Part shown: positions 4,661-28,567 of the stretch, one piece after another
How the letters are laid out: each line of letters begins with the position of its first letter
Position numbering within the stretch: position 1 is the first letter of the stretch
Source of the DNA: a virus
Taxonomy: Duplodnaviria > Caudoviricetes
DNA: 59,028 nt
Strand: one strand, 5' to 3'
Virus record (IMG/VR): IMGVR_UViG_3300027653_000014
Span: 1-59,028 of that record
The notes under the pieces: generated by a model
Database searches by the model: none
Told to the model about the DNA's origin: nothing
What the model saw: only the letters and a program-made list of their open reading frames with translations
Made by a program: the position numbers and the translations under genes

Positions 4661-4975
4661 CTAGTCGGTGGCTTCGTCGTCAAGCATCGCCACTAGATCA
4701 AACTCGTTGGACTCCCCGGCCCATACGCCCCACGCTGGGCGCTCCCGGTGAAAGAAAGCGTGGCAGGCAGCGAAAGCGTCAGGCTGCGTCAGCTGGCACT
4801 GCGTCAGGCACAGGTGAGCGGCCTCCTGCACGGCTTCCTTGACGTGGCGCATCGATCCTGACTCACCGAACCACAGATCAACCACTCGACCATTCTCTAG
4901 CCGTCGTCCGGCTACCTCAGCGTTCATACAAGGTGTGTCTGCATCCTCGGGCAGGTTAGGCATGTTCAGCATCAC
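4661..4975 (-). CDS. whiB: WhiB-family transcription factor
   Basis: Four Cys (C...DLWF...CLTQC...C) and a WGVWAG turn motif. Confidence 0.8.
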   Translation of the reverse strand: MMLNMPNLPEDADTPCMNAEVAGRRLENGRVVDLWFGESGSMRHVKEAVQEAAHLCLTQCQLTQPDAFAACHAFFHRERPAWGVWAGESNEFDLVAMLDDEATD

Positions 4976-5214
4976 AGGGGCGGCTCCTTCCGGTAAGGAT
5001 TATCCAACACAGTCCCGTAAACATCATTGTCTACTGCACTTTCGTATCCCTCGTCCCAAGCGTCAGCCTTGAGGTTATCCAGCCAGCGCAAGAACTCTGC
5101 GCCTGTACCAGACATGGTGCCGTCCTCCCCGACCACAAAGTGATAGGCGCTCCCCTGCTGTACGCAGTACGCCTCTAGCACCTGCATAGTGTTCGGTGTG
5201 TAGTCATCGCTCAC
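4972..5214 (-). CDS. Hypothetical protein ending in a WDEGY...NPYR module
   Basis: ORF coupled to whiB; its C-terminal motif is shared with 58710..59028. Confidence 0.65.
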   Translation of the reverse strand: MSDDYTPNTMQVLEAYCVQQGSAYHFVVGEDGTMSGTGAEFLRWLDNLKADAWDEGYESAVDNDVYGTVLDNPYRKEPPL

Positions 5215-16095: not shown

Positions 16096-16626
16096 GTGGC
16101 CGAAAAAGAGGTTGTAGAAGCGTCCGCGCTGACGAAAATGATTGTTCAGGCCCGCGAACGGGGCAAGTCCTTCATCCAAATCGCGGAAGACTATGAAATC
16201 ACGCCTGAGAAGGCGTATGCGGACTACATGGCGTTCATGGAGTCTGAAAATGAGGTCAATGAGTACGAATACCGCCTTTTGCAGCTTCGGCGTCTTGAGC
16301 GCTTGATTGACAAGTGCTATGAACTTGTTGAGGTGGGCTCTGTTGACCACATGAAGCTCACTTTGAGCGTCATCAAGGAGATTTCTGCTCTACTCGGCCT
16401 CCACAAGGAGAAGGCCCAGCAGATTGTGCAGGTTATTGACCAAAGACAAGTGGTGCTAGTCACAAACTATGTCCAGGCGGTCTCCGACACGCTAAAGGCG
16501 CAGGTTTTGCGCACTGTCACCGCCAAAAAGGCGCGGGAACAGCTCGAAACTGAGTGGGATCGGTGGGTCGCTGAAGCCTCTGCGGAGCCGCTGAAGGAGA
16601 TTGAGCAGGACAAGGTAAAGGTCTGA
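16096..16626 (+). CDS. Terminase small subunit (putative)
   Basis: N-terminal HTH (RERGKSFIQIAE); coupled to the large subunit. Confidence 0.7.
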   Translation: MAEKEVVEASALTKMIVQARERGKSFIQIAEDYEITPEKAYADYMAFMESENEVNEYEYRLLQLRRLERLIDKCYELVEVGSVDHMKLTLSVIKEISALLGLHKEKAQQIVQVIDQRQVVLVTNYVQAVSDTLKAQVLRTVTAKKAREQLETEWDRWVAEASAEPLKEIEQDKVKV

Positions 16627-19187
16627 TGGTCAACTTTCAGGCGGTAGCCAAAAACCTTCAGAAGAAGGCTAACCATTCGCTGCACCTCAATGACCCTGTT
16701 TCATGGGCAATGGATGAGGTTGACGTAACTTTGTGGTCCAAGCAGCAGGAAATTATGCGTGCGTTGGTCACGCATAAGAACGTCGCAGTTAAGACGACCT
16801 TCAGTGTTGGGAAGATGTTGCCCCTCGACACTCCGATCCCTACACCTAAAGGATGGTCCTCGATGGGCTCTCTCAAGGTAGGTGATCAGGTGTTTGGTGA
16901 GGACGGGAAGCCTACTACTGTCACGTACGTCTCGCCCACTCAGGTTGGCAAGATGTACGAGCTTACCTTCAATGACGGTACAACGATAGTGGCTTGCGCA
17001 GACCACCAGTGGAATACGCTTACCCACACTGATAGGCAGAGGGCTAAGAGGTACCGAAAGGGTGCTAGTGCTGACTGGCGGGACCATTGGGATGAGTCCA
17101 GCACTAAAACCACTCAGCAGATCGTAGATACTCTGCGAAACTCTAATAACCAGCCAGTGCACGCTATTCCGATAGCGGCCCCACTACAGTTGCCCGATGC
17201 TGACCTGCCTCTGGACCCCTATATCTTCGGGGCGTGGCTGGGCGATGGGGCTAGCAGGGCTCCACAGATGTACATCGGTAACGATGGCGGGCACATCATA
17301 GAAGAGTTTAACGCTAAGGGATACACCCTGACGAAGATGGTGTCTGATCCTTATGGGTACACCTTCGCAGCCGCACACAAGAGGGGTGACTATGTGCGGC
17401 TGCTTAAGAAGATGAATGTGTACCGCAACAAGCACATTCCTATGGAGTACCTACGTGCCTCTGAATGGCAACGGAGAGAGGTGCTGCGAGGCATCTTAGA
17501 TACTGATGGCTTCGTTATCAGGGACAGCACTGTTGGCATCGATTTGATGAACAGGCCCCTAGCTGAGAGCCTTGCCGAGCTGATCCGCAGCCTTGGGTAC
17601 AAGGTGAACCTGCGGGAAAACCGTGCCACAGTCAGCGGGCGTGATGTTGGTGTGCGGTACCGTATGGCCTTCACCGCCAACAGCAACCCGTTCACGCCCG
17701 GTGGGGCTAAGCACGAGAAGTTCACTGCTGCAACTAGAACAAGCGTGTCTCGGACCACATGCAGGACTATTGTGGCAGCGAGGGAGGTTGAAGAGGTGCC
17801 TTCTCGCTGCATCTCCGTTGACAATGAGCGCAGCCTCTACCTAGCGGGAGAGAACTTCATCCCCACCCATAACACGATGAGCGCCGCCGTCGCTGCGGCG
17901 TGGTGGGTGGCAACACGAGGACCTGACTCGTTGGTGTTTACGACGGCCCCGACCAACTTCCAGGTTCGTGCCCTCCTGTGGTCTGAAATCCAGAAGCTGC
18001 ACGTCCGCGCGGGACTGCCGGGACGCATTACACAGGACGCACGCTGGATGTACCCATTTGGCACTACTGAGCGTATGGTTGCCTCCGGTGTAAAGCCTGC
18101 TGACGGCAGTGCTGAGGACCAGGAAATCAACACCCTTCAGGGCCTGCACCGTAAGGGCGGCATTCTAGCCATTGGAGATGAGGCAAACGGCCTGACGCCC
18201 GGCATTTTCCGAGGCTTGCAGCGCATTACTACCGCTAAGCACGACCGTATCTTGCTTATTGGGAACCCGACCTCGCCCGGCACAGAGTTTCACAGGCTGT
18301 TCAAGGAAAAGCCTGAAGACTGGTACCTGATGACCATTTCGGCATTCGACTCCCCCGCATTCACTGGGGAAGAGGTGCCGGAAGACCTGCTGGCGGGAAT
18401 GCCTGATCCTGAGTGGGTGGAACTACGGCGCAAGGAGTGGGGCGAGGACTCGAACCGCTGGAAGTCGAACATCCTCGCGGAGTTCCCCACTACCTCTGAT
18501 GACGGCCTGTTCAATCAGTCGCTGGTCGATGCTGCGGCCAAGAACCAGGAACACAAGAAGTCCGAGACCGCTGCCCCTGTGATGGGCGTTGACGTTGCCC
18601 GCTACGGAGGCGACTCCTCCACGGTGTTCGTGCGGTGGGGCAAGTATGTGGAGTTCCTTGACTCTTGGACAGGACTGGACACCCAGGAGACCGCTGAGCG
18701 GGTTGCAGGCCATGCCAAGAGGCTTGGCTGCCGCGAACTGCGGGTTGACGCCATCGGCGTGGGTGCAGGTGTCGTTGACGCACTAGCACGGCTGCTACCC
18801 GAGGCAGCGGTGTACGAGATGATTGGTTCTGCGGCTAGCCCGGACGCCACCAAGTGGTACAACGCTCGCGCGTACTGGTACGACAAGCTCCGCGAACAAA
18901 TCCATGCAGGTGACTTGACCATTCCGAATCATGACAAACTCCTTGATGAGTTCGGAGTGATCCGGTACACCATCCGAGGCTCGGCAATGCTGATCGAGTC
19001 CAAGGAAGACATGCGCAAGCGGGGCGTGAAGTCTCCTGACTACCTTGACGGGCTTCTCTACACCTGCGCCGATGTCCACGGGGACGGTATTGAGGGTGAA
19101 CAGATCGTGGGTGAGGAAGACATCTTTGATGAAGATGAACTGCTCACAATCGATGGACGAGAAGCCTGGTCATTTGTTCCGTGGTAG
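16626..19187 (+). CDS. terL: Terminase large subunit containing an intein
   Basis: Split Walker A (SVGK|T), Walker B (IGDEA), IGNPT, nuclease motifs GVDVARYGGD and KSPDYLD. Confidence 0.95.
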   Translation: MVNFQAVAKNLQKKANHSLHLNDPVSWAMDEVDVTLWSKQQEIMRALVTHKNVAVKTTFSVGKMLPLDTPIPTPKGWSSMGSLKVGDQVFGEDGKPTTVTYVSPTQVGKMYELTFNDGTTIVACADHQWNTLTHTDRQRAKRYRKGASADWRDHWDESSTKTTQQIVDTLRNSNNQPVHAIPIAAPLQLPDADLPLDPYIFGAWLGDGASRAPQMYIGNDGGHIIEEFNAKGYTLTKMVSDPYGYTFAAAHKRGDYVRLLKKMNVYRNKHIPMEYLRASEWQRREVLRGILDTDGFVIRDSTVGIDLMNRPLAESLAELIRSLGYKVNLRENRATVSGRDVGVRYRMAFTANSNPFTPGGAKHEKFTAATRTSVSRTTCRTIVAAREVEEVPSRCISVDNERSLYLAGENFIPTHNTMSAAVAAAWWVATRGPDSLVFTTAPTNFQVRALLWSEIQKLHVRAGLPGRITQDARWMYPFGTTERMVASGVKPADGSAEDQEINTLQGLHRKGGILAIGDEANGLTPGIFRGLQRITTAKHDRILLIGNPTSPGTEFHRLFKEKPEDWYLMTISAFDSPAFTGEEVPEDLLAGMPDPEWVELRRKEWGEDSNRWKSNILAEFPTTSDDGLFNQSLVDAAAKNQEHKKSETAAPVMGVDVARYGGDSSTVFVRWGKYVEFLDSWTGLDTQETAERVAGHAKRLGCRELRVDAIGVGAGVVDALARLLPEAAVYEMIGSAASPDATKWYNARAYWYDKLREQIHAGDLTIPNHDKLLDEFGVIRYTIRGSAMLIESKEDMRKRGVKSPDYLDGLLYTCADVHGDGIEGEQIVGEEDIFDEDELLTIDGREAWSFVPW
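16815..17873 (+). mobile_element. Class 3 intein (353 aa) with LAGLIDADG homing endonuclease
   Basis: Starts MLPLDTPIPTP (no Cys/Ser at position 1); DHQW in block B; GAWLGDG and RGILDTDG motifs; RCISVD in block F; ends PTHN|T. Confidence 0.9.
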
Positions 19188-19236: not shown

Positions 19237-20694
19237 ATGGCGTTGTTCACCCGTAATAGCGGAGTGCGGGAACTAAAGGATGCTTTTGGCTCCGTGCTCT
19301 CCGAGGTTGACCGTCTGACCACCGAGCACGAACGGCTGGAAGAGGCCGTTAACGGTACCGGTCTTGCGGCTCTGCGTGCTGAGGACAAGGGCTGGCGGCT
19401 TATCAGCGGGGGCGTGCTCGACACGGATGAGATTGACCTCGATGTTCTTCGGGAGCACGCCGCTGACGCACGCGCTCTGCGGGCGATGAACCCGCTTGTC
19501 AAGCGCGGCATCGTGGTCCGTAACGCCAACATTTGGCGCGACAAGATCAACTATCCTGACGCGGCCAATGAAATCCTTGAAGACCCGGTAAACAAGGAGC
19601 AGTTCTTCGGGGATGAGGCACAGGAGGAACTAGAAGCCGCCTATTGCACGGACGGGCAGTATTTCCTGCTGCTGGACTCCGCGACGAAACAGGTTCGCCG
19701 TATCCCGTTCCATGAAATCACTGGGATCATCACCAACCCGGACTACGACAGCGAGATTTGGTACTACAAGCGCACCTATGTTCGCCGCACCACGCAGACC
19801 TCTGACGGTGAGACGCGCAAGGATACAGTCAGTACGTACTACCCCGCCGTAGACCTCCCTGTGAGCAAGCGGCTCAAGGCCAACAAGATTGGCGAGACCC
19901 CGATTGACCACAGCAAGGCTATTGAGCACAGCACGGTCAACAGCTCCACCGGGTGGCGGTACGGTGTGCCAGACCTGCTGGGCGCGGTGTATTGGGCACG
20001 GGCCTACAAGGAGGCCCTTGAGGCGGACTACACGCTGAAGAAGGCCCTTGCCCGGTTTGCATTCAAGTTGAGCAATCAGTCCGCAAAGGGCAACCGTGCC
20101 GCTGCGGCCAAGCTCGCACAGCCTGTTGCCCGTAGTGAGGCAGGCTCTACGGTCTCCCTTGGTGCGGGACAGGACTTGCAGGCCATCAACAAGTCCGGCT
20201 CCTCTGTGGACTTCAGTGCTTCGTCCCCGCTTGCGGGCATGGTTGCCGCCGCACTGGATATCCCCCTCTCTGTGATTCTGACGGACGGGTCGGCAGGTGG
20301 GCGGCAGGGTGCTGAGAATGCTCTTGAGCAGCCCACCATTGACACCATGAACTTGCGCCGTAAGACGCACCTGAAGTCGCGTCAACGGGTGCTTGAGTAT
20401 TTCGGCGTTGAGGGTGAGATTACGTGGCATGATCTTCACGGCGATCAGACACACCGCCGTCTTCAGTCGATTGGCCTAGCCAAGGATATGGGTGTTCTCC
20501 ACCCGGAAGAGGTGCGTGGTGAGGTGCTTAATGCGCTTGCGGTTGTCACCGACAAGGCGGTTGATGACATTCCCGAAGACTACAATAAGCAGCCTGAAGT
20601 AACGGATGGGCCGGGAGAACAAAGTCCCGTAGGGCCATTGAGCGACGGCACAAACGACTCAAGAGACAATCCAGGCGGTCCTACGGACGCTTAG
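19237..20694 (+). CDS. Portal protein
   Basis: 485 aa directly after terL; NPLVKRG and YGVPDL motifs typical of actinophage portals. Confidence 0.85.
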   Translation: MALFTRNSGVRELKDAFGSVLSEVDRLTTEHERLEEAVNGTGLAALRAEDKGWRLISGGVLDTDEIDLDVLREHAADARALRAMNPLVKRGIVVRNANIWRDKINYPDAANEILEDPVNKEQFFGDEAQEELEAAYCTDGQYFLLLDSATKQVRRIPFHEITGIITNPDYDSEIWYYKRTYVRRTTQTSDGETRKDTVSTYYPAVDLPVSKRLKANKIGETPIDHSKAIEHSTVNSSTGWRYGVPDLLGAVYWARAYKEALEADYTLKKALARFAFKLSNQSAKGNRAAAAKLAQPVARSEAGSTVSLGAGQDLQAINKSGSSVDFSASSPLAGMVAAALDIPLSVILTDGSAGGRQGAENALEQPTIDTMNLRRKTHLKSRQRVLEYFGVEGEITWHDLHGDQTHRRLQSIGLAKDMGVLHPEEVRGEVLNALAVVTDKAVDDIPEDYNKQPEVTDGPGEQSPVGPLSDGTNDSRDNPGGPTDA

Positions 20695-20757: not shown

Positions 20758-21879
20758 GTGGTCAAACTAAGGGAAAGCCTTAATGGCGCTCTTGTTGACA
20801 GCCCATCCGAAAGCAGGTCCGGCAAGCGTTGGCGTGTGAAGGTGATAGAGGCGGGAAAGGGCTCCTCCGCTATCTACCCTGAAAACGTGCTTCGGGACTA
20901 CGCCAGTGTTTTCGAGGCGGGTACTCAGATGTACCTTGACCACCCCGGTAAGAGCGAGGAGTCTGACCGCCCTGAGCGGTCTGTCCGCGATCTTGTCGGA
21001 CGCCTTGTTTCTGAGGCGGAGTACAAGGATGGTGCTCTTTACGCGGAGGCCGAGTTCCTGCCTTGGGCAGCCCCGGCCATTGAGGCTTTGTCCGATATGG
21101 TCGGCCTCTCCATTCGCGCATATGGCACTGTCACTGAGTCAGATGACGGCCCAGTCCTTACCTCCTTCTCGGGGGTAGAGAGCGTGGACGTTGTGACCAA
21201 GGCAGGCGCAGGCGGACAGTTCGTTGAACTGCTTGAGTCGGCCCGAGCCAAGAATGTCGAGGAGGCAAAGTCCTCGGACATTCACTCCTCACTCACTGAT
21301 CTTGTCGCTTCTGAGACGGGCATGGAGTGGGGCTGGGTGCGGGACTTCGATCCCGACAAGCAGACTGTTTGGTACACCGCTGACAGCGGAACGTACGAGC
21401 AGCAGTATGAGACCACAAACGGTCTACCCTCTGCTCTTATTGGAGAGCGTACGAAGGTCATTGCGACCACTGAGTACGTCTCCATCGGAGAGAGCGCATC
21501 TGTTACCACACAGAAGGAGAAAAGTATGACCCCGGAGCAGGAGGCTAAGCTCGACGCACTTGTCGAGTCGATTAGCAGCCTCAGTGAGCAGTTCTCCACG
21601 GTGGCTGAGAGTCTGAAGGCTCCTGAGCCGGTCGTGGAGGAGGACGCAGCCCCCGTGGACGCCCTTGAGGCAGCCAAGGCACTTGCCGCGTCGGAACTCT
21701 CTGAGGCAGGCCAGGCTATGGCGATTGCCCGAGTCAGCGAGAGCGTTTCGCTGGAAGAGGCTATCAATGCTCAGAAGGAGTACGAGGACAGCGTTCGGCA
21801 GTCGGTTGGTAACGGCTACCACGTTGTTGAAGAGCGCAAGGAGCCGGTGAAGGTTCCGTTCAAGAAGGTGGGTGCCTGA
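20758..21879 (+). CDS. Capsid maturation protease/scaffold
   Basis: YLDHP, GLSI and SVDVVT.AGAGG protease motifs with an acidic helical tail. Confidence 0.85.
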   Translation: MVKLRESLNGALVDSPSESRSGKRWRVKVIEAGKGSSAIYPENVLRDYASVFEAGTQMYLDHPGKSEESDRPERSVRDLVGRLVSEAEYKDGALYAEAEFLPWAAPAIEALSDMVGLSIRAYGTVTESDDGPVLTSFSGVESVDVVTKAGAGGQFVELLESARAKNVEEAKSSDIHSSLTDLVASETGMEWGWVRDFDPDKQTVWYTADSGTYEQQYETTNGLPSALIGERTKVIATTEYVSIGESASVTTQKEKSMTPEQEAKLDALVESISSLSEQFSTVAESLKAPEPVVEEDAAPVDALEAAKALAASELSEAGQAMAIARVSESVSLEEAINAQKEYEDSVRQSVGNGYHVVEERKEPVKVPFKKVGA

Positions 21880-21881
21880 TA

Positions 21882-22286
21882 ATGGCAAAGAACCAGGTTT
21901 TCAAGTATGTGGACACCCTCTCCGTTCCTGTGCCCGAGGGCACTCAGAGCGGTGACCCGGTCGTCCTGAACGCAGACATCGGACTCGTTGGTGTTGCGGA
22001 GACTGACCGAGGCCCCGCCGAGGGTGCCGAGGTTACGGCAGACACCAAGTACGCGGGCGGCAACGTCAACGGCTACGCCTCTGTGGGGCTGAAGGGTGCT
22101 TACCGCCTTCCGGTCACCGGAGCGCTTGAGCCGCTTCAGCCGGTGTACATCACCGGCGCAGGCTCGCTGACCGCGACCGCCGGGACCAACGTTCGTTTCG
22201 GTTACTCGCTGACCACCAAGGGCTCAGGCGAAGGCGATGCCACTGTGGTTATCGACGGCGCTCCGGCTGCTGCGGACGCGGGCTGA
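21882..22286 (+). CDS. Capsid decoration/cement protein (DUF2190-like)
   Basis: MAKN...SGDPV...LVGVA pattern; lies between protease and capsid. Confidence 0.75.
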   Translation: MAKNQVFKYVDTLSVPVPEGTQSGDPVVLNADIGLVGVAETDRGPAEGAEVTADTKYAGGNVNGYASVGLKGAYRLPVTGALEPLQPVYITGAGSLTATAGTNVRFGYSLTTKGSGEGDATVVIDGAPAAADAG

Positions 22287-22295
22287 TAGGAGAAA

Positions 22296-23456
22296 ATGAC
22301 AATGACTCGACTGATCAAGAACACCGACCACTTCCGCGAGGTGCTCGCTGAGGCCCTTGCCGGTAAGTACAAGTCGCAGGCTCTCCTGAAGGAGGCCATC
22401 ACCACTGACGACATTCCGTACTTCATGCGGCAGGTTGTCAACGCTGAGCTTGAGGAGCAGTACCCGCAGGCTGAGCCGGTGTACCGCACGTTCACCACGG
22501 ACTTCGAGCTTAACGACTTCCGTCCGGGCGGGCTGTACGAGCTTCTGCCTGACTCCTCGATGCTGCACCGGGAGAACGGTGGGCAGACGCGCTCTGTGGG
22601 CCTTCCCCGCATTCCCGAGCTGACCCCGTACCCGACCTTCGAGTACCGGGAGAGCGAGAAGTGGTTCACCACGCACAAGAACGGTGCGCGGATTCACTTC
22701 TCCTTCGAGGCGTTCATCAACGACGAGTGGGACCAGATTGCATCCCTCCCGGCTGAGATGATCCAGCTCGCTGTGGACACTGAGGAGGCGCTTGCGCACC
22801 TTCAGCTTGTCGGCCCCGAGGGCATCAACTCCGCGAACTTCAACGCTGGGAACGGCAACGTTCTTCAGGCCCGCTCCGTCGCCACCCTGGGCGATGTGAC
22901 CGGCACCGAGACCAACGTTCCGGCCAACTCCCCGCTGACCCTCGATGCGCTGTTCGCGGCCATCGCGCAGGTCAAGGAGCAGCGTCACAACGGTCGCGCG
23001 GTTCGCGTCAACCGCTTCGTCCTGCTGGTGCCCCCGGCCCTGACTCAGTACGCCAACGTGCTGGTCAACGCCGCTGTGGTCCGTCAGACGGTCGGTGGCC
23101 GGGAGTTCGAGATTTCCAACCCGCTGCCTGCGCAGATTCGGGTTGTGGAGTCCGAGTTCCTTGCTGAGCTGAACGGTGACGACGCTACGGCTGACTCGAC
23201 GTGGTTCCTCCTGCCCGAGGGTGGCCGCACCGGTAACGGTCGCCGGACCATCATCGAGACCTTCCTCCGTGGTCGCCGTACCCCGGAGATGCGGGTGTCG
23301 GGCAACACGGGCCGCTACATCGGTGGTGGGGACGTTCCCTACACCGAGGGCTCCTTTGATTCGGATGACGCCGAGGTTCGTATCCGCCATGTGGTCGGCT
23401 CCGGATTTGCAAATGCGGACGGGACTATCGCGTCCAGCGGCTCTGGTGAAGCCTAA
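22296..23456 (+). CDS. Major capsid protein
   Basis: 386 aa, strongly biased codon usage, LLVPPAL and TWFL motifs, followed by a terminator. Confidence 0.9.
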   Translation: MTMTRLIKNTDHFREVLAEALAGKYKSQALLKEAITTDDIPYFMRQVVNAELEEQYPQAEPVYRTFTTDFELNDFRPGGLYELLPDSSMLHRENGGQTRSVGLPRIPELTPYPTFEYRESEKWFTTHKNGARIHFSFEAFINDEWDQIASLPAEMIQLAVDTEEALAHLQLVGPEGINSANFNAGNGNVLQARSVATLGDVTGTETNVPANSPLTLDALFAAIAQVKEQRHNGRAVRVNRFVLLVPPALTQYANVLVNAAVVRQTVGGREFEISNPLPAQIRVVESEFLAELNGDDATADSTWFLLPEGGRTGNGRRTIIETFLRGRRTPEMRVSGNTGRYIGGGDVPYTEGSFDSDDAEVRIRHVVGSGFANADGTIASSGSGEA

Positions 23457-23553: not shown

Positions 23554-24117
23554 ATGCCCGCACCACTTTACCCACCTAGAGAAGACGGAAACACCGCCCT
23601 ATGCCGAGTACCTGGGTGCGACAGAATAAAGTACAGGGGTACGACGATGTGTGGTAAGCATTGGTCTGAACGCTACTCCACCCCCCAGCGCCCTATTAGG
23701 GCAGCGGACAGAGATGGGCAGGGACGTAAATACTGTTTTGGGTGTCGTGTGTGGCAGGAAGTGTCTAACTTCCACAAAGGTTCTGCCAAGCATATGGACG
23801 GCCTGAAGGCTAGGTGCAAGAAGTGTTCTAGCCGGGAGTACCGGGCACGCACATACGGCATCTCTGCGGAGAAGATGGATGCCATGCTTAAGGAGCAGGG
23901 AGGCATTTGCGCTGTTTGTGGCATTGATCCAGACCACAAGTGGGCAGTGGACCACGATCATTCATGCTGTCCTGGGACGAAATCTTGTGGTAGGTGTGTT
24001 CGAGGGATACTCTGCGACCGGTGTAACACAGCCATTGGTACTTTAGGCGATAATAGCGAGGCTGTCATGCGGGCAGTAGACTATTTGCGGGCTTACGAAC
24101 AACGTGTGGTACGCTAG
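23554..24117 (+). CDS. Endonuclease VII-family HNH nuclease
   Basis: YGIS...QGGICAVC...VDHDH...VRGILCDRCN..IG. Confidence 0.9.
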   Translation: MPAPLYPPREDGNTALCRVPGCDRIKYRGTTMCGKHWSERYSTPQRPIRAADRDGQGRKYCFGCRVWQEVSNFHKGSAKHMDGLKARCKKCSSREYRARTYGISAEKMDAMLKEQGGICAVCGIDPDHKWAVDHDHSCCPGTKSCGRCVRGILCDRCNTAIGTLGDNSEAVMRAVDYLRAYEQRVVR

Positions 24118-24199: not shown

Positions 24200-24246
24200 T
24201 CATGTTGACACTTCTCTTGTCACACTGCTAGGGTTGTGTGCTGATA

Positions 24247-24329
24247 GGGGCGGTAGCTCAGTGGTAGAGCGTGCGGTGCACCGTCAAACGATGAAAGCAA
24301 GTGCGTGGGTTCGATTCCCGCCCGCCCCT
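24247..24329 (+). tRNA. tRNA-like RNA with aberrant anticodon arm (identity undetermined)
   Basis: Acceptor GGGGCGG/CCGCCCC, D arm GCTC-AGTGGTA-GAGC and T arm GTGGG-TTCGATT-CCCGC are present, but there is no canonical 5-bp stem/7-nt loop anticodon arm. Confidence 0.7.
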
Positions 24330-24388
24330 ATCTGTAGTTTCGTAGGTTCAAGCTTCGTAGTTAGGTGCTATAGTAGATAGCACCAGTC

Positions 24389-24496
24389 CCCCCGCCGCCT
24401 CTCAACGATGCGCCCTGCGGGGGTCCTTTCTTACGTGGTAGCATGGTTCTAATAGACCCCCTTCCAAGCCTCTCCACGATGCTCAAATGGGAGGGG
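24389..24496 (+). ncRNA. Two copies of a bulged hairpin with loop CUCUC(A/C)ACGAU (24389-24423, 24458-24496)
   Basis: Same architecture, different stem sequences, near-identical 11-nt loop. Confidence 0.7.
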
Positions 24497-24500
24497 CCTG

Positions 24501-24573
24501 TGGTCCGTAACTCAGCAGGCAGAGTACCCCGCTGTTAACGGGAGTGTCGTAGGTTCGAGTCCTACCGGGCCAG
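24501..24573 (+). tRNA. tRNA-Asn(GTT)
   Basis: Cloverleaf: TGGTCCG/CGGGCCA acceptor, CT-GTT-AA anticodon loop, GTAGG-TTCGAGT-CCTAC T arm, G discriminator. Confidence 0.9.
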
Positions 24574-24634
24574 CGAGAGCCGTTGGAAGCACGGTGTACC
24601 CACTACGGTGAGGGAAACCCCCAGCGGCCTTGAA

Positions 24635-24711
24635 GGGGAAGATCAGGTATCGACTATTGGAAGGCCGCACGCGGCACCAGTAGGAAGTGGGTTCGATTCC
24701 CACCTTCTCCA
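24635..24711 (+). ncRNA. Minimal tmRNA-like RNA (tRNA-like domain only)
   Basis: 5' GGGGAAGATCAGGTATCGAC and 3' GGAAGTGGGTTCGATTCCCACCTTCTCCA; G3-U70-equivalent pair and A discriminator. Confidence 0.75.
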
Positions 24712-24788
24712 CGAAGGCCCCGGAACCATCCCTACGCTTAGGCGTAAATGGCCGGGGCTACGTCTTTTCACTCTGCTAAACTTGGAGC

Positions 24789-26821: not shown

Positions 26822-27367
26822 ATGGCAAAGCTGATGAACCCCAACACCACGATTTGGTGGGTTGACGGGGCAGCCGTTCAGAGCGCTGACGAGATTGACC
26901 TCGATGTCCTTGAGGCCGCAGACAACATCTCGTGCGCTATCGTCACCGGCTCCACGCTCAACCCGACCGACTCGGACACCGACGACACCCGCTCCATCTG
27001 TGACGAGGGCAACGTCGCTACCCCCACGTATGACAACTACGAGGGCAACCTGACGTTCTTCCGGACCAACAACCCGGATGCGACGGAGGGTAACGACGCT
27101 GCGATGGAGCTGGCCTTCCAGCTCTTCAAGCACAAGGGCGCTGAGGGCTACCTGGTCCGCCGGATCGGCAAGAAGAACAACGTTCCTCCGGCTGCCGGCG
27201 ACCTGATTTCGGCCTTTAAGTTCCTCTCCGACAACCCGCAGGATGTCTGGGGCGGCGACGAGGGTCCGATCCAGTTCACCGTTCCCTTCCTTCAGCAGGG
27301 CGACATGGTTCTGAACAAGGAACTCACCGGGACCGGTGGCGGTGGCGGGGGCGGGGGCGGCGACTGA
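26822..27367 (+). CDS. Major tail protein
   Basis: NISCAI, D.RSICD and GYLVRRIG motifs; biased codons; terminator follows. Confidence 0.9.
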   Translation: MAKLMNPNTTIWWVDGAAVQSADEIDLDVLEAADNISCAIVTGSTLNPTDSDTDDTRSICDEGNVATPTYDNYEGNLTFFRTNNPDATEGNDAAMELAFQLFKHKGAEGYLVRRIGKKNNVPPAAGDLISAFKFLSDNPQDVWGGDEGPIQFTVPFLQQGDMVLNKELTGTGGGGGGGGGD

Positions 27368-28125: not shown

Positions 28126-28501
28126 GGAGCAGAATCGTTACCTGCATACGGCAATCAAGGCGGCTATCGAGAATAAAGTACCAACGGCCTTCTTCCTAGA
28201 TGGCCGGGAGGACCCTACCAAGTGGCTGCCAAAGGACAAGAAACTCGCTCTAGCGTGGCAGACGTATCAGGACGAACTTTGTCCCAAGTGCGGTGTTCCT
28301 ATCTGGCTGGGGCATTCGGAAGACCCGCACATTGATTTCGAGTTGAAGACTACGGTCTGCTACTCGTGCCAGGCCCTTGAACAAGACAAGCAGGACCCGC
28401 CGAAGGGTGGAATGCGGTACGCCGTCCCTGTGCCCGTAGAGATTGAGGGCGAGGATATCCAATTGCCCTCTCGTCTGAAGGGTATGGAAACCGCCCAATA
28501 G
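28094..28501 (+). CDS. Tail assembly chaperone extension (T-like), in the +1 frame
   Basis: Overlaps the end of the previous ORF; CPKCG...CYSC motif. Confidence 0.75.
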   Translation: MPDFVAEQLHKEQNRYLHTAIKAAIENKVPTAFFLDGREDPTKWLPKDKKLALAWQTYQDELCPKCGVPIWLGHSEDPHIDFELKTTVCYSCQALEQDKQDPPKGGMRYAVPVPVEIEGEDIQLPSRLKGMETAQ

Positions 28502-28567
28502 TAGTTTGTCCTCACCTGTTAGAATGGGTGAGGACTTACTATTTTCTTTAGGGGTTAGGCGGCTAGG

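Follow-up and report, generated by a model that had tools for sequence, protein, structure and literature searches.

A soil phage with terminase, portal, capsid and tail genes carries, on the + strand at positions 24635-24711 of the stretch studied here, a 77-nt element that is the tRNA-like domain of transfer-messenger RNA (tmRNA) without the mRNA-like region. The stretch is IMG/VR virus record IMGVR_UViG_3300027653_000014 (59,028 bases, estimated completeness 77%), called the window below, and the element, which runs from G1 to discriminator A73, is called a mini-tmRNA: a tag-less tmRNA consisting of the tRNA-like domain only (TLD-only). The Rfam tmRNA model RF00023 matched positions 24635-24714 at 56.0 bits, above its gathering score of 47 (E = 2.5e-19 for the whole window), and among the models of the Rfam clan the bacterial tmRNA model gave the highest score at the element, so that the assignment made in an earlier note from the sequence alone was borne out by the model comparison that the note had itself proposed. 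The match extends from end to end of the model (model positions 1-374), with 310 central positions reduced to 16 nt, and because these 310 of the 374 positions are missing, tagging is impossible for the mini-tmRNA. A covariance model of our own (model R1), built without the window sequence, scored the element at 67.8 bits (E ~2e-17).

The acceptor stem pairs GGGGAAG (24635-24641) with CTTCTCC, which is followed by the discriminator A at 24711 (3' strand and discriminator, 24704-24711), over 7 bp, and its third pair is a G-U wobble between G3 (24637) and U70 (24708). G3-U70 is a determinant for alanyl-tRNA synthetase (AlaRS). There is no D stem; instead, 12 unpaired nucleotides, ATCAGGTATCGA (24642-24653), form a D-loop analogue of the tmRNA type GG...TCGA that aligns with the Rfam tmRNA consensus GAucuGGaUUCGAC. 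A 7-bp helix resembling P2a, CTATTGG/CCAGTAG (24654-24660 and 24677-24683; whole unit 24654-24683), encloses an AAG bulge, a stub hairpin GCCG-CACG-CGGC (24664-24675) that caps it, and a single A. It is followed by GAA and the T arm GTGGG-TTCGATT-CCCAC (24687-24703), which was recovered in both the RF00023 alignment and the fold. The minimum free energy (MFE) prediction reproduces this structure exactly (-31.1 kcal/mol, z = -2.88), with 2 of 200 shuffled sequences folding equally well, and the stems, wobble, loops, hairpin and T arm described in the earlier note are all present at these coordinates.

An ordinary tRNA with a real anticodon, which the earlier note had named as the contrary outcome, was not found: at 24635-24711 ARAGORN called no tRNA, tmRNA, anticodon arm or tag peptide, and the fold departs from the tRNA cloverleaf (RF00005) in having neither a D stem nor a 7-nt anticodon loop. 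Pseudoknots PK1-PK4 are absent from the 77 nt in both the RF00023 alignment and the fold, and neither RF00023 nor ARAGORN identified the resume codon, tag frame or stop codon of an mRNA-like domain in the element. The sole in-frame stop, TAG at 24680-24682, lies within a strand of the P2a-like helix, which varies freely among relatives. The model for permuted two-piece tmRNA (RF04321) gave a partial T-loop match only (11.3 bits, E = 6), and the 5' and 3' halves of the mini-tmRNA are in standard, not permuted, order. The genomic 3' trailer, up to which the Rfam match extends (24714), is CGA in place of CCA, and the CCA end would therefore need post-transcriptional addition.

A family of mini-tmRNAs and the selection acting on it

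BLAST searches identified unannotated relatives in the tRNA arrays of Streptomyces phages BRock, LuckySocke, GiJojo, pSt2308 and Alone3, of which the BRock and LuckySocke copies scored 64.5 and 57.1 bits against RF00023; every named phage found to carry a mini-tmRNA, among those examined, has no RNA annotation for it. The window, BRock, LuckySocke and the Mycobacterium phage DS6A (discussed below) have the hairpin core CCGCACGCGG in common. Two pattern scans of IMG/VR yielded 92 stretches (scan 1, hairpin core and T loop) and at least 120 stretches (scan 2, TCGAC, then T loop, then TCCAC), and these were scored with model R1, which derives from 24 gapless 78-nt members. For the first set, 93 of 108 matches in 97 sources scored 47.1-101.4 bits, and for the second, 75 of 86 matches in 99 sources scored 40.6-92.4 bits among the matches listed; the remaining matches were tRNA-like and scored 37.1 bits or less, giving a bimodal distribution. 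Overall there were at least 167 strong matches in 195 sources (window counted once), almost all of them IMG/VR contigs. The further TLD-only copies that the earlier note had suggested looking for thus amount to at least 126 distinct sequences, or at least 135 with bacterial genomes added, implying a class that is common in viral metagenomes and, in the window, was overlooked by ARAGORN. The sequence set and the covariance model provide a practical resource for this class. The core CCGCACGCGG is carried by 57 of 114 distinct sequences, a share inflated by the scan 1 pattern; it was present in 16 of 80 scan 2 loci among the matches listed. Family members without this core have different small hairpins at that position.

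Covariation across the family shows the fold to be under selection. With all 114 sequences, MAFFT left the 5' ends out of register, so the alignment was rebuilt through the covariance model, and the 101 distinct sequences used here are hence fitted to the structure. Standard pairs occupied 96.8% of cells in this alignment versus 66.7% in shuffles, and 17 of 21 pairs changed on both sides. The covariation score was 0.690 against 0.132 and was reached by none of 500 shuffles, and it fell to at most 0.09 when partners were offset by 1 to 3 columns. All six pairs scored in the P2a-like helix changed on both sides, and the T arm helix was paired in 100% of cells with four of its five pairs covarying. 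A gapless MAFFT alignment of 24 sequences, not fitted to structure, gave similar values (97.8% paired; covariation 0.659 versus 0.133), and RNAalifold predicted the same fold on its own.

Conservation of the acceptor end was assessed in 64 distinct model-positive sequences that had been ascertained by hairpin and T loop only. G1-C72 and G2-C71 were kept in all 64, G3-U70 in 62 and A73 in 63, and acceptor pairs 4 to 6 swapped freely among G-C, C-G, A-U and U-A. The D-loop analogue motif GG..T(C/T)GA(C/T) was present in 60 sequences, and length was 76-80 nt in 62. A C followed A73 in 59 of the 64, with the full CCA encoded in just 5. The alanine identity elements noted earlier in the window copy are therefore shared by nearly all relatives, and because G3-U70 and A73 are kept in a set unselected on the acceptor, alanine charging itself appears to be under selection.

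Carrier contigs ranged from 33% to 70% GC (median 55%), a width that makes the class probably not confined to actinophages. One low-GC carrier encodes a DNA polymerase ~32% identical to T5-like and Vibrio phage enzymes; two further protein searches for a host clue among low-GC carriers gave no match, and BLAST with two divergent mini-tmRNAs retrieved no further named phage. When a single genome of each prokaryote species was scanned for the hairpin pattern, 12 stretches were returned, of which 11 were true mini-tmRNAs (58-93 bits); 8 of the 12 records were Actinomycetota, and the elements were often within tRNA arrays. Contigs of Actinomadura (250-280 kb) carry theirs inside large tRNA arrays, all on the - strand, with two copies in one locus (L211:4640-4718 and 4935-5013) and another at L214:3042-3119. 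A full tmRNA (132-157 bits) was also present in all three actinobacterial genomes with a mini form that were checked. In Actinomadura violacea, the one pair compared, the acceptor stem and the T stem in the tRNA-like domain of the host tmRNA both differ from those of the mini form, and this mini form is therefore an addition, not the product of a recent deletion in the host gene. On these comparisons, the mini-tmRNA is accessory to the host tmRNA rather than a replacement for it.

ARAGORN also called long 'tmRNA' or permuted 'tmRNA*' genes (285-644 nt) sharing the 3' end of a mini form in 8 of 126 loci (L099, L003, L041, L118, L113, L176, L169 and L194). These calls are probably artefacts in which the true 3' half is paired with an upstream look-alike.

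Predicted action on stalled ribosomes and its alternatives

Trans-translation, a drug target, is the main bacterial route of ribosome rescue; phage strategies towards it have hardly been studied. We propose, with a probability of roughly 60%, that the mini-tmRNA acts as an alanine-charged, SmpB-bound competitor that enters stalled ribosomes without leaving a degradation tag. Judged by its sequence, it keeps every part for charging, SmpB binding and A-site entry, and nothing for tagging. The RNA would be transcribed together with the neighbouring tRNA genes, trimmed like a tRNA, given its CCA end by the host and charged with alanine by host AlaRS. It would then be bound by SmpB. According to a review (PMC3022190), alanylation of the tRNA-like domain is enhanced by bound SmpB, and the alanine-charged domain with SmpB is a mimic of aminoacyl-tRNA that accommodates in the empty A site. 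An SmpB gene was found neither in the window nor in any of the three complete genomes of DS6A, LuckySocke and BRock, and SmpB-dependent action in such phages must therefore use host SmpB, in competition with host tmRNA. With EF-Tu, the charged RNA would enter ribosomes stalled on broken mRNAs in place of host tmRNA. Because there is no resume codon, at most one alanine would be added; the usual degradation tag would not follow, host tagging would be reduced, and tag-free release may occur.

The alternative that survives best, although we consider it unlikely, is a pure SmpB sponge: an RNA that titrates host SmpB (perhaps also AlaRS or EF-Tu) off the ribosome, with no peptidyl transfer. The sponge is the published suggestion for DS6A (PMC4131195, PMC11915505): with reference to Mao et al. 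2009, PMC4131195 describes strong inhibition of E. coli tmRNA by a similar molecule, whether chargeable or not, and offers titration of SmpB as a possible cause. Conservation of the SmpB-binding D-loop analogue GG..TCGAC (60 of 64) and the lack of a detected SmpB gene in the four phage records also fit a sponge. A sponge, however, needs neither G3-U70 nor A73, yet these were kept in 62 and 63 of 64 sequences next to acceptor pairs that covary freely, and C74 followed A73 in 59. The conservation of G3-U70 implies that charging matters and leans away from a pure sponge. It also makes the sponge and ribosome entry experimentally separable, and BRock and LuckySocke are cultivable Streptomyces phages.

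A tRNA-like decoy or substrate outside trans-translation, whether bait for a host defence nuclease that cleaves tRNA or tmRNA or an element for processing or stability of the RNA cluster, is very unlikely. The window copy is indeed clustered with two tRNA-type genes and two orphan motifs of the abiF antitoxin type (described below), and an ARAGORN call lies within 300 nt in 39 of 126 loci (9 of them overlapping the element itself). However, what is conserved are the features recognized in tmRNA and by AlaRS, not an anticodon loop, the usual nuclease target; 79 of the 126 loci have no tRNA call at all, and a regular-expression search over 1.85 Mb of loci found the abiF motif beside the window copy only. 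Least probable is a non-functional leftover, either a decayed phage tmRNA gene or a tmRNA-derived attP core. Integration into the 3' part of a tRNA or tmRNA gene is frequent among phages (PMC10865867), and some phages have full tmRNA genes. Against a leftover, the window copy retains the two halves of the domain with perfect pairing, the fold shows covariation over 101 distinct sequences, length is held at 76-80 nt in 62 of 64, neither a tyrosine integrase nor a serine recombinase was found in the 77%-complete window, and DS6A integrates at tRNA-Lys, not tmRNA (PMC10865867).

Several observations weigh against an alanine-charged competitor. According to PMC4131195, inhibition in E. coli needed no chargeable molecule, so SmpB titration alone could suffice and G3-U70 could be kept for another reason. 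The window copy has GGAAG before the T arm where most relatives have GGAC. Across at least 135 loci no protein gene was consistently linked to the element, the largest neighbour protein cluster occurring in 14 of 135, and neighbour clusters comprised endonuclease VII, portal, terminase, capsid, helicase, exonuclease and WhiB. Release factors of the RF-1/ArfB type and of the Pth type were each found in none of four phage records, and the proposal leaves unexplained the fate of a template-less ribosome holding peptidyl-Ala-mini-tmRNA. At the level of expression, no sequencing run recorded as RNA holds the stretch, and the contigs that do attest presence in DNA only; two runs guessed to be RNA had no cover over 24558-24677, are probably DNA and are uninformative on expression.

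More tentatively, and with rather low expectation, the competitor reading can be widened to a large uncatalogued class of alanine-charged phage RNAs that would work actively on stalled ribosomes through host SmpB, by tag-free rescue or by repeated template-free alanine addition. Such RNAs might be deployed, sometimes with tRNAs and here with orphan abiF RNAs, to sustain translation when host RNases or abortive-infection nucleases cut mRNAs. With only the entry module of tmRNA kept, this natural 77-nt RNA uncouples entry into the ribosome from tagging. An inhibitory action would make it a compact natural inhibitor of SmpB-tmRNA; a rescuing one would mean that one alanine without a tag suffices for a virus.

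Phage genome and neighbouring RNA cluster

The mini-tmRNA sits where head genes give way to tail genes in a siphovirus-like structural module. This comprises genes for the large terminase (16626-19187, + strand), portal (19237-20694), protease (20758-21879), decoration protein (21882-22286), major capsid protein (22296-23456) and, beyond the RNA cluster, small structural open reading frames (ORFs, from 24789) and the major tail protein (26822-27367). The terminase ORF, at 853 aa, is longer than usual and has separate PHROG terminase matches at residues 36-428 and 420-817. Elsewhere, the window encodes DNA polymerase, primase, helicase, exonucleases, a Sak4-like protein, thymidylate synthase, methyltransferase and endolysins. 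The capsid protein, with 76 matching records, has its closest counterparts in Streptomyces, Arthrobacter and Microbacterium phages (identity at most 36.7%), in agreement with the actinobacterial setting assumed in the earlier note. No close relatives of the window phage appeared in the IMG/VR capsid-protein scan, and megablast of the region against named phages gave a sole match of 51 nt, which was tRNA-like. An endonuclease VII-like ORF (23554-24117, + strand) lies between the capsid gene and the RNA cluster; members of its PHROG families recur at a distance of ~1 kb from the mini-tmRNA at 14 of 135 other loci, and the ORF may encode a homing-type nuclease that moves together with cassettes of this kind.

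All elements of the RNA cluster are on the + strand, in the order tRNA-Val-like gene, two abiF hairpins, tRNA-Asn, spacer, mini-tmRNA and a hairpin with a U run. The tRNA-Val(CAC)-like gene (24246-24330; called by ARAGORN, Rfam tRNA 51.1 bits) has intact acceptor, D and T arms and an abnormal, enlarged anticodon arm (22 nt in place of 11 in the model) with no regular 7-nt loop. The abiF RNA motif at 24460-24496 scored 50.8 bits against RF03085 (gathering score 37), and a weak second abiF-like hairpin at 24391-24422 scored 24.6 bits, below the gathering score (E = 0.057 in a scan of 701 bases). The tRNA-Asn(GUU) gene (24501-24574; ARAGORN, Rfam tRNA 57.8 bits) lies 60 nt upstream of the mini-tmRNA, and the intervening spacer (24575-24634) forms a stable hairpin (-24.7 kcal/mol, z = -3.14, none of 200 shuffles as good) that has no meaningful match to an Rfam family. 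Downstream, a long hairpin followed by UACGUCUUUUC, the U run (24716-24759; -27.4 kcal/mol, z = -3.58, 1 of 200 shuffles as good), is a putative terminator-like end of the cluster. A TTGACA-18 nt-TAGGGT box read by eye at 24205-24234, 12 nt before the tRNA-Val-like gene, is a possible promoter. A scan for sigma-70 consensus promoters and terminators listed neither this box nor the hairpin; as a pair, they would delimit a single transcription unit of five RNA elements.

A noncoding RNA with two abiF motifs has been reported to neutralise the AbiF toxin by direct binding (bioRxiv 10.1101/2025.04.15.648962). By analogy, the two orphan motifs here could act as antitoxin decoys directed at an abortive-infection system of the AbiF type; the window yielded no Abi_2/AbiF protein gene. 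The word AACGATG was not enriched in the window (8 observed versus 5.5 expected). The link to toxin- or RNase-based defence raised in the earlier note draws only circumstantial support from these two motifs in the same cluster.

DNA contigs from two soil runs hold the whole cluster at ~96% identity to the window. In these relatives the 77 nt differ by two changes, both in the AAG bulge, and by one (C31 to U, with a U-G pair kept), respectively, and most differences fall within 24261-24315, in the tRNA-Val-like gene. Contigs of other runs join 24427 to 24714, omitting the abiF motif, tRNA-Asn and mini-tmRNA, and further contigs join 24383 to 24771, 24204 to 24575 and 24428 to 24501. These contigs were matched at 90% likeness with join sides of 30-45 letters, and such joints are error-prone; they weakly suggest that related phages differ by whole RNA modules.

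Relation to known tag-less and full-length tmRNAs

The closest precedent is DS6A, which Hudson, Lau and Williams listed in 2014 as "TLD only", with a sequence hardly more than the tRNA-like domain of tmRNA (PMC4131195); this account is repeated in the 2025 tmRNA database (PMC11915505), where the entry is Phage__Mycobacterium.9. The form itself was thus in print before the earlier note, which had implied its novelty, and the note's ideas of SmpB sequestration and tag-free release, reasonable as possibilities, had likewise been published for DS6A and for organellar tag-less tmRNAs. No report of a mini-tmRNA family beyond DS6A was found in a literature search that had supplements and subscription journals outside its range. 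What is new here is the size of the family, a structure that covariation supports and that includes a conserved stub hairpin, and conservation of the alanine identity set.

We located the DS6A element (80 nt, 28478-28557) within 28478-28560 of DS6A, unannotated in the record. It resembles the window element in G3-U70, the stem-less D loop with TCGAC, the P2a helix, the CCGCACGCGG stub hairpin and the T arm, and model R1 gives it 61 bits. Both phages have no detected SmpB, and the DS6A element is not its attP, because DS6A integrates at tRNA-Lys (PMC10865867). However, the two sequences are unlike in every helix, and RF00023 scores the DS6A copy at 43.2 bits, below the gathering score, versus 56 for the window element. 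DS6A is temperate and carries its element between gp33 and the DNA polymerase III gene, whereas the window element belongs to an RNA cluster downstream of the capsid gene, and searches for an integrase in its phage gave no match.

Canonical tmRNA (SsrA, RF00023) shares with the window element the acceptor with G3-U70, A73, the D-loop analogue, the T arm and the first helix, but has in addition four pseudoknots, a resume codon, a tag frame and a stop codon, all of which the window element lacks. From tRNA-Ala, with which it shares G3-U70, A73, the T arm and a 7-bp acceptor stem, the element differs in having no D stem, anticodon arm or anticodon. Full-length phage tmRNAs, compared by annotation only, occur in cluster C mycobacteriophages (e.g., Bxz1) and cluster BE Streptomyces phages; they are likewise phage-borne, usually beside many tRNA genes, and are annotated as 'tmRNA' in their records, whereas the window mini form escapes ARAGORN. 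The organellar tag-less tmRNAs of jakobid and oomycete mitochondria (RF02544) and of Mallomonadaceae plastids, the latter including forms of ~65 bp with no coding sequence (PMC11915505), likewise consist of a tRNA-like domain without a tag frame, and are thought to help with incomplete mRNAs together with SmpB (PMC11915505). There, however, the tag-less form is the sole tmRNA of the organelle and works with imported SmpB, whereas the window element would enter a cell with a full tmRNA of its own, as an extra copy brought by a virus.

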